In this document: one piece after another, positions 7,386-7,973 of the stretch
How the letters are laid out: each line of letters opens with the position of its first letter
Position numbering within the stretch: position 1 is the first letter of the stretch
Virus record (IMG/VR): IMGVR_UViG_2778261417_000015
Coordinates: 1-31,156 of that record
Origin: a virus
Taxonomy: Duplodnaviria; Heunggongvirae; Uroviricota; Caudoviricetes
Direction: 5' to 3' (one strand)
Length of the DNA stretch: 31,156 nt
Position numbers and translations under genes: made by a program
Notes under the pieces: model-generated
Told to the model about the DNA's origin: nothing
Seen by the model: the letters and a program-made list of their open reading frames with translations, nothing else
Databases searched by the model: none

Positions 7386-7973
7386 TTAGAGGTTCGTCAC
7401 ATCTACTAATCTTGTGTGTCCGTTGTAAGTTGCGAAAAGGCTGCCGTCTGGCTCAACAACTGAAAGTTCAGCGTATCGAAGGAAATCAGTTTTGATAACA
7501 GACATCAACACCTCTCCAGTATCGATGTTTATTACCTCAACCCGATTCGCGTAAAAGTCATCTTTGTTTTTGCTACCGGCAAACGATAGGGCTATGTATC
7601 GGCCAAATTCTGATATGGCTGAACAAATGAGGTGAGTGGATGTTTCTATCTTGAATAACTCTTTCCCGGCGTTATCCATGACTATGGCTGCAGCCATGTT
7701 GTTGTCTTTGCCGGTATGGACTGAAAATAAAAATCGTCCGTTAACTGCTATGCATTGAGGTTTTGGAGAGTGATTCTCTCCAAGTTTGATCATGAATAGG
7801 AATCTTTCATTTTTCATAACCGCCAGCGTGTCGTCCCTGAAGTTGCTTTCATCACGCTTAAAAGCCCCTAATTGCCACCGTTTATCTTGGCTTAATTTGC
7901 ACGTAATAAGGTGGTCGCCAAGCTCGTATAAGACGCTGCCATCACTCAGTTCTGTAACTCTATTTGCTTCCAT
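7386..7973 (-). CDS. Unknown 195-aa protein immediately downstream of cI (rex-like position)
   Basis: Intact ORF. Its GAGGAAG RBS overlaps the cI stop codon, with an 11-bp intergenic gap. Markedly AT-rich relative to the core genes. No transmembrane segment seen. Confidence 0.65.
   Translation of the reverse strand: MEANRVTELSDGSVLYELGDHLITCKLSQDKRWQLGAFKRDESNFRDDTLAVMKNERFLFMIKLGENHSPKPQCIAVNGRFLFSVHTGKDNNMAAAIVMDNAGKELFKIETSTHLICSAISEFGRYIALSFAGSKNKDDFYANRVEVINIDTGEVLMSVIKTDFLRYAELSVVEPDGSLFATYNGHTRLVDVTNL

Follow-up and report, generated by a model that had tools for sequence, protein, structure and literature searches.

BstA is a validated abortive-infection protein that is encoded at a conserved site 3' of the prophage repressor gene, with which it presumably shares a promoter, and the mosaic hot spot between cI and N holds both bstA and rexAB (PMC8585504). 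In lambda, rexA and rexB occupy the slot between cI and the leftward operators and promoter (OL/pL), lie on the cI strand, and are driven by pRM in lysogens (PMC8585504). HK97 gene 15, the first element to be named a moron, is a superinfection-exclusion gene (PMC3594210), and Tab of Pseudomonas phage JBD26 binds the tape-measure protein of the invader (PMC10884400). Here, we describe ORF195, an open reading frame (ORF) of 195 amino acids (aa) at positions 7386..7973 (minus strand) of a 31,156-nt stretch of Caudoviricetes DNA (IMG/VR record IMGVR_UViG_2778261417_000015), which we refer to at its full length as the window. The repressor-operon cargo arrangement of ORF195 is known; its protein family is undescribed and unusually minimal, and ORF195 belongs neither to RexAB nor to BstA nor to any other family in PADLOC. 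We suggest that ORF195 is an accessory, moron-type gene of a lambdoid prophage and a good candidate for a new exclusion factor.

ORF195 starts with ATG and ends with TAA. On the minus strand, its junction with the upstream repressor gene reads CAT AGC TGA GGAAGTTAAGC ATG. The cI stop codon (TGA, 7985-7987) is followed by an 11-nt spacer, and a GAGGAAG Shine-Dalgarno (SD) sequence lies across the stop codon, 6 nt 5' of the ATG (the whole element spans 7974..7987, minus strand). Both the spacing and the overlapping ribosome-binding site had been pointed out in a preliminary description of this DNA, and both were found in the sequence. The same description had proposed translational coupling to cI; strict coupling is not needed, as ORF195 has a good SD of its own. 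The 11-nt junction was identical in all 32 IMG/VR contigs that carry the gene and also in the E. coli and Citrobacter copies. With the window, E. coli 1218KP (L001), and Citrobacter freundii (L012) added to these contigs, the set amounted to 35 copies, all of which were intact at 588 nt and which comprised 27 distinct nucleotide sequences. When compared with L001 and L012, ORF195 had a ratio of nonsynonymous to synonymous substitution rates (dN/dS) of 0.08-0.11 at a synonymous divergence (dS) of 0.54-0.68. Because of these low ratios, we consider ORF195 to be a real gene under strong purifying selection and not a chance ORF. Several E. coli database entries contain the exact protein under the name "hypothetical protein," and its 90% cluster contains 264 members from E. 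coli, Enterobacter, and Citrobacter.

The GC content of ORF195 (0.429) was lower than that of the whole window (0.522), as had been noted, and its AT-richness had been taken as a sign of horizontal acquisition. We rejected low GC as evidence that ORF195 was acquired separately, because cI is equally AT-rich (GC 0.450) and showed the same synonymous divergence between genomes (cI versus ORF195, 0.52 versus 0.54 and 0.59 versus 0.62). The two genes have traveled together as a unit. It is a clean presence/absence indel, described below, and not base composition that identifies ORF195 as cargo.

The upstream gene (7985..8740, minus strand; longest ORF, 251 aa) encodes a cI-type repressor that matched Pfam HTH_3 (E value [E] of 2e-18), Pfam Peptidase_S24 (the autocleavage domain; E 6e-8), and a PHROG annotated as "transcriptional repressor" (E 4e-51). 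RefSeq relatives are annotated from M12 (the 240-aa form), and an OR3-like operator and a pRM-like -10 element (8688-8740) fall within the first 15 codons of the longest ORF; the true start is probably M12 (8707) or M16 (8695). The sequence TATGAT is followed 7 nt on by the ATG at 8695, a geometry that would give a leaderless, lambda-like cI mRNA from M16.

The motif TGWAC-N5-GTWCA, with at most one mismatch, occurred 11 times in the window versus 2.1 times expected, and 6 of the 11 matches formed two triplets to which no strand is assigned. One triplet (7236..7296; sites 7236-7250, 7260-7274, and 7282-7296) lies on the far side of ORF195 and is designated OL. The other (8688..8759; sites 8688-8702, 8721-8735, and 8745-8759) is designated OR because it is located between cI and a divergent cro-like gene (8776..9015, plus strand; phrog_35, E 3.5e-12). 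A promoter scan identified a pL-like promoter (TTTACA-17-CATCAT; 7232..7260, minus strand) that overlaps OL and points away from ORF195. Directly beyond it, 250 bp that resemble the nutL leader of a leftward early operon (6978..7227, minus strand) are 92% identical to phi80, and this homology abuts the left triplet and ends exactly at the annotated phi80 pL -10 element and OL operators. Because of the operator triplets, the pL-like promoter, and the phi80 nutL homology, we place ORF195 between cI and OL/pL and hence inside the predicted immunity region, in the position that rexAB occupies in lambda. A rex-like position is what the preliminary description had suggested.

Within OR, the expected site of pRM, the promoter scan identified a pRM-like promoter (CTGATA-17-TATGAT; 8703..8731, minus strand), which was the sole promoter-like site 5' of the cI-ORF195 pair on that strand. 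Because the scan found no promoter between the two genes, and no convincing terminator was found there either, the simplest reading is that cI and ORF195 are cotranscribed from the pRM-like promoter. The earlier expectation that ORF195 is coexpressed with the repressor is supported to the extent that nothing seems to separate the genes; the shared transcript itself is read from the sequence. Terminator-like matches were not enriched in the region (5 found versus 2.5 +/- 1.6 expected), and there was no canonical terminator 3' of ORF195. A hairpin with the sequence AAAGUUCAU-N-AUGAACUUU (7291..7320, minus strand) lies between the ORF195 stop codon and pL and overlaps the third OL site. It has a predicted RNA folding energy of -10.7 kcal/mol (z score, -2.5) and no U-run, is conserved in two relatives that lack ORF195 (L004 and L005), and may mark where the pRM transcript ends. 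No Rfam family was matched in the ORF195 region.

The presence or absence of ORF195 in phages with the same repressor and OL gave the approximate extent of the cassette (7336..7981, no strand). ORF195 is missing from Citrobacter phage Omnitron (L005) and E. coli ET846 (L004), which share with the window both OL and the repressor (about 84% nucleotide identity). Their homology to the window covers cI, stops at 7978-7982, and restarts at 7335-7344, with 47 and 71 nt in place of about 640. L005 has TGATGAAGTT after the cI stop codon where the window has TGAGGAAGTT, and because of this retained sequence the empty slots look like deletions that left an SD remnant. We scanned IMG/VR with the repressor as the query and obtained 80 loci, in 36 of which cI was at least 92% identical and in 44 of which it was 58-67% identical. 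ORF195 was present in 32 of the 36 phages with a near-identical cI, and the remaining 4 had an empty slot of 114-128 nt; it was found in none of the 44 loci with the more distant cI. Thus, close relatives differ by the precise-junction presence or absence that marks a moron (an indel of about 640 bp relative to L004/L005, and 32/36 versus 4/36). A promoter and a terminator of its own, by which a moron can be expressed from the repressed prophage, were not found, and the ORF195 copy in the window would borrow the cI operon instead. A moron is also expected to differ from its neighbors in base composition; the GC content of 0.429 compares here with 0.522 for the window and 0.450 for the adjacent cI.

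The comparison of this slot across related prophages, which the preliminary description had called for, also revealed varied cargo. Phages of the group with a 58-67% identical cI share the operator motif, and 70 to about 2,400 nt separate their cI stop codon from OL; the slot genes were nearly all co-oriented with cI and varied in kind. They encode full-length BstA (322 aa; L084 and L106; PADLOC E 1e-123), a shorter BstA-like protein, a HigB toxin with a helix-turn-helix antitoxin and a third gene, a DUF6414 protein paired with a protein with multiple transmembrane (TM) segments, a P63C-domain protein, an SDH-protease-like protein, a lipoprotein, and several unknowns. In this lineage, the cI-OL slot is thus a hot spot for cargo, with ORF195 positionally allelic to known defense and toxin-antitoxin (TA) cargo. 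The description of the locus as a cargo site was borne out in that sister phages carry the validated abortive-infection (Abi) gene bstA and a HigB TA pair in the same slot. This sharing supports a defense role for ORF195 but leaves it unproven.

Many slot genes in L063-L106, the phages with a 58-67% identical cI, are uncharacterized: they matched nothing in PADLOC, and those that were also scanned against Pfam matched nothing there. Among them are the gene for a 306-aa protein (L072/L079/L089) and a pair that encodes a 340-aa protein and a 168-aa TM protein (L092). In L085/L087, the slot holds a 143-aa TM protein and a 303-aa protein, and the only match for this pair was the uncharacterized Pfam family DUF6414. 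We regard this uncharacterized cargo as a pool of further candidate repressor-linked defense genes.

The ORF195 protein is predicted to be acidic and soluble (21.9 kDa; isoelectric point, 5.55). As had been stated, it has no TM segment (maximum Kyte-Doolittle 19-residue window, 1.16), and we found no catalytic motif, nucleotide-binding motif, or signal peptide. Searches of Pfam, PHROGs, PADLOC, and NCBIfam yielded no match; the PADLOC result answers the defense-system profile scan that had been proposed as a check. Below threshold, Pfam scans of individual members matched WD40/beta-propeller models (E 0.002-0.07, single family members), and a profile of the family matched PDB sequences of TAF5 WD40 (E 0.11) and thiocyanate dehydrogenase (E 0.6-2). 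Of 1.84 billion cluster representatives searched exhaustively with phmmer, only nine proteins reached E<=0.001. A phmmer match to a 545-aa WD40 repeat protein (E 5e-6, in four stretches) was weak but significant, and the units FSPDGRYLATGS...VVETTTGKEL of that protein resemble SEFGRYIALSF...VEVINIDTGEVL of ORF195. A profile search of 5.8 billion entries gave 22 proteins at the same cutoff, and the family, with about 22 clusters, is very small. Its members come from Enterobacterales and Vibrio casei. Full-length family members are about 182-231 aa long and stand alone with no fused domain; the remainder are short fragments. Homologues with as little as 28% identity retain the same length.

An AlphaFold2 model based on a 14-sequence alignment had a predicted local distance difference test score (pLDDT) of 91.8 and a predicted template modeling score of 0.87. 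A single-sequence model was too poor to use (pLDDT 56) and was replaced by the alignment-based one. The model consists of four four-stranded antiparallel blades and one extra C-terminal strand, and the blades are arranged radially, as in a beta-propeller. The preliminary description had recognized no motif in ORF195; the model and the WD40 match instead suggest that it is a soluble, WD40-like, four-blade half-propeller with no catalytic domain, that is, a beta-propeller by predicted structure and a borderline WD40 relative by sequence. In the structure comparison, which had been recommended as a check, between 140 and 169 residues of the model superposed on seven-blade propellers, and there was no four-blade hemopexin-type match in the top 60. 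For these two reasons, ORF195 is predicted to form an open four-blade arc. The arc is probably completed by oligomerization or by docking on a partner.

In the family alignment, each blade had a single motif of the form "x-[D/N/F]-G + hydrophobic strand" (8-18, 74-84, 119-131, and 171-183). Invariant residues were concentrated in blades 2-4, and in the clade that occupies the cI slot the proportion of variable sites was highest in blade 1 (57%) and was 27% in blade 4. An internal repeat between the N-terminal and C-terminal halves was marginal (hhalign, P 0.002). An N-terminal, TM-like extension of family member P0012 was examined as a clue to a membrane anchor and was rejected: it is probably a miscalled GTG start, because an internal ATG, located where the other members start in the alignment, is preceded by a strong AGAGGA SD. 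A literature search for ORF195 accessions and for stand-alone WD40/beta-propeller prophage defense proteins found nothing relevant.

The family has a second home. All members with 28-52% identity and a recoverable genomic context were located in the moron slot between tail-chaperone and tape-measure genes. They include homologues in Klebsiella phage Kp4856-1 (L002) and in E. coli, Providencia-like, Vibrio-like, and metagenomic prophages. In three loci (L024, L025, and L026), the homologue is the next gene 3' of a 145-aa Arc/Mnt-like ribbon-helix-helix repressor gene, on the same strand and after a 62-nt gap, and the repressor gene is divergent from an arc-ant-ant operon; this arrangement is a P22 immI-like module. 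L006 has the same arrangement of repressor and homologue with two genes between them. The family thus tends to follow a lysogen-expressed repressor in two unrelated genome positions, and this recurrence is the strongest comparative argument that the product is expressed in lysogens. The gene 3' of the homologue in the tail slot encoded a lipoprotein, a secreted protein, or a TM protein at every locus checked, and the families differed, which fits a multi-moron hot spot. In two tail-slot copies (L007 and L011), a TTGTCA -35-like hexamer was read by eye upstream of the gene.

Several other genes of the tail slot were recorded. In L015 (4313-4891), the slot also carries a gene for a 192-aa protein with a HEAGH metalloprotease-like motif. 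In L002 (5278-5929) and L006 (2372-3104), the homologue is preceded by genes for a Zn-ribbon protein (phrog_4293) and a coiled-coil protein with a C-terminal TM helix (phrog_6324/3556; weakly holin/XhlA-like). The phrog_4293 and phrog_6324 pair was considered as a required partner in a three-gene module, and this was rejected because the pair is absent from the other tail-slot loci and from the window. Among 5,426 complete E. coli genomes, the cI-slot clade was found in 7 and the tail-slot clade in 1. The family was present in 2 of 50,697 phage records, and a plasmid search found no homologue.

How, then, does ORF195 compare with the systems described above? Position and orientation are those of rexAB. 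However, ORF195 has no RexA or RexB sequence or profile similarity (PADLOC, Pfam, PHROG, and NCBIfam), it is one gene where RexAB comprises two, and it has no counterpart of the polytopic membrane protein RexB. With a beta-propeller fold, the sensor-plus-ion-channel mechanism could not apply as such. Like bstA of prophage BTP1, ORF195 is a single gene directly 3' of the repressor, and L084 and L106, which have a related cI and the same operator motif, carry bstA in the same slot. In contrast to BstA, ORF195 has no KilA-N domain, it does not match the BstA profile that its slot-mates match, and no aba-like self-immunity element was identified for it. The tail-slot homologues occupy the slot of HK97 gene 15, but gp15 belongs to the YebO family and is a small protein of the inner membrane, whereas ORF195 is predicted to be a soluble 22-kDa propeller fragment. 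The equivalent cI-to-OL slot of phi80, whose nutL/pL region is so similar to that of the window, holds gene 40A, whose 288-aa product is unrelated to ORF195 and has an acetate-kinase-superfamily domain. A canonical WD40 propeller is closed by seven or eight blades and ORF195 has four in 195 aa, with no Pfam WD40 model above threshold; among the matches, its nearest analogues of natural size are engineered, oligomerizing half-propeller fragments (6g6q, 6r60, and 6r5z).

P2 Tin is a single cytoplasmic prophage protein that blocks invaders by binding a phage protein. Tab is likewise a stand-alone, enzyme-free, prophage-expressed cytoplasmic protein, and it represents the mechanistic class that we propose for ORF195, although the two are not homologous and Tab is an 83-aa protein encoded between terminase genes. 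By analogy, ORF195 would most likely be functionally similar to such single-protein factors rather than to the two-component RexAB channel. The model that we propose builds on the reality of the gene, its cassette nature, its position, its fold, and its recurrence downstream of lysogeny repressors. We infer that cI and ORF195 would be transcribed together from pRM, so that ORF195 would be made continuously in lysogens and would be off when the repressor operon is off. The half-propeller would probably pair with itself or with a partner to complete a propeller, and it would then bind and disable, or sense, a protein of a superinfecting phage. We give a probability of about 0.4 to the idea that ORF195 protects the lysogen against other phages through stoichiometric binding or sensing of a phage protein. 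A more specific version is more doubtful, and we offer it tentatively: the half-propeller may be a single-protein prophage immunity factor that moves between two repressor-driven slots (3' of cI, and 3' of an Mnt-like repressor gene in the tail-operon immI region) and blocks superinfection by binding alone, with no enzymatic or membrane effector, possibly as an eight-blade pseudo-propeller dimer.

Several results weigh against an anti-phage role. No homology or domain in Pfam, PHROGs, PADLOC, or NCBIfam links ORF195 to any defense function, and in PADLOC-DB v2.0.0 (2023 models) zero families matched even at E<=1. Beta-propellers are generic scaffolds, and the fold does not discriminate between roles. 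The slots also hold non-defense cargo (lipoproteins and unknowns), which makes guilt by location weak. The cI-slot clade is under purifying selection and has no obvious arms-race signature except for the more variable blade 1, and no self-immunity partner was found. In addition, the family is very rare (7/5,426 E. coli genomes), which argues against a broadly useful defense gene; rarity is also typical of defense cargo.

The alternative that survived best is that ORF195 is a lysogenic-conversion factor, in which case the half-propeller would bind a host protein and alter host physiology (stress tolerance, growth, or colonization) for the benefit of the lysogen. Repressor-linked and moron slots would provide the same expression logic for such a factor, and the capacity of beta-propellers to act as general interaction scaffolds serves this role equally well. 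Purifying selection would suit a conserved host target, and the lipoproteins and secreted proteins of several families that neighbor the tail-slot copies are typical of conversion morons. We nevertheless judge conversion to be unlikely, because the known occupants of the exact slot in sister phages are Abi and TA genes and because the characterized cytoplasmic cargo linked to lambdoid repressors (rexAB and bstA) is mostly anti-phage. Moreover, the family occurs in E. coli, Enterobacter, Citrobacter, Klebsiella, Providencia, and Vibrio, so a host target would have to be very conserved.

Adjacency to both immC (cI) and immI-like (mnt/arc/ant) modules would be explained if ORF195 were a component of the switch, buffering the lysis-lysogeny control of its own phage by binding, for example, an antirepressor, RecA, or cI. 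Copies in L002, L006, L011, L020, L024, L025, and L026 do adjoin Arc/Mnt/Ant, pRha, or KilA-N-like modules, but no antirepressor module was found near the tail-slot copies in L007, L015-L019, and L023. The cI-slot clade goes with just one cI allele (32/36 at >=92% identity and 0/44 at 58-67%) with matching dS, a pattern for which tight physical linkage alone accounts. Four phages with the same cI, as well as L004 and L005, do not have the gene, so it is dispensable for the switch, and both locations are independently known as moron hot spots. We therefore find a role in the switch quite improbable, more so than conversion.

Even less can be said for a late tail morphogenesis protein or virion-associated accessory protein, of which the cI-adjacent copy would be a displaced version. 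Most of the divergent members are indeed found in the tail operon, where they share the strand of the tail genes and lie immediately 5' of the one for the tape measure. However, divergent ant/arc/mnt modules break up that slot and its lipoprotein cargo varies, the copy in the window lies in the immunity region on the strand of the repressor and hence beyond late transcription, no PHROG structural family matches ORF195, and the gene is absent from otherwise similar phages. We consider this explanation very unlikely. Finally, although every source labels ORF195 a "hypothetical protein," a nonfunctional ORF or decaying remnant is effectively refuted by selection (dN/dS of about 0.1 at dS up to 0.68, with 35/35 copies intact), by a confident AlphaFold fold from only 14 sequences, and by homologues that keep their length down to 28% identity.

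Other features of the window were noted in passing. In the leftward early leader (region 6596-7227, minus strand), positions 6859-6913 match the phi80 N leader. The first leftward gene (ATG at 6856, minus strand) encodes an acidic 86-aa protein that belongs to phrog_21696, a family with no assigned function, and is not N-like; a tblastn search of the window with phi80 N and lambda N yielded no match. A strong intrinsic terminator (6597->6580, minus strand) follows this gene. The Ren-like gene (12206..12550), which had been cited as a sign of counter-exclusion functions in the same genome, did match phrog_142 "Ren-like exclusion protein" (E 3e-28) but is irrelevant to ORF195 function. Between it and the nin region, an oppositely oriented gene (12869-13621, minus strand; GC 0.38) encodes a 250-aa protein with an N-terminal membrane region and a coiled coil (phrog_4780, no assigned function). 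It looks like another moron, and its PADLOC matches were coiled-coil noise only (JetC/LmuB, E~1e-3). A gene among the head and packaging genes (24027-24542, plus strand; 171 aa; GC ~0.40; phrog_17948) is a possible late-operon moron. The sole Rfam match in the window was the Hfq-binding small RNA isrJ (16803-16875, plus strand; 69.9 bits, E 4e-11), just 3' of the Q antiterminator gene.

Few parts of a prophage are expressed as strongly as the cargo of the repressor operon, such as rexAB and bstA, and this cargo has been a repeated source of new immunity mechanisms. The work presented here defines a tiny uncharacterized family that consists of a predicted half-propeller and nothing else, is found in two moron slots, and tends to follow a lysogeny repressor. 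The two-slot distribution is a notable comparative finding, and the generic scaffold fold limits functional prediction. For the phage lineage as a whole, the operator motif and the slot boundaries provide a handle for mining other unknown cargo. If ORF195 is not a defense factor, it would be a clean example of one cargo gene that has been re-plugged into different repressor-driven expression sites. If it is a defense factor, prophage immunity would gain an effector-less, scaffold-only type, together with a compact 22-kDa binder that has a discoverable phage target.
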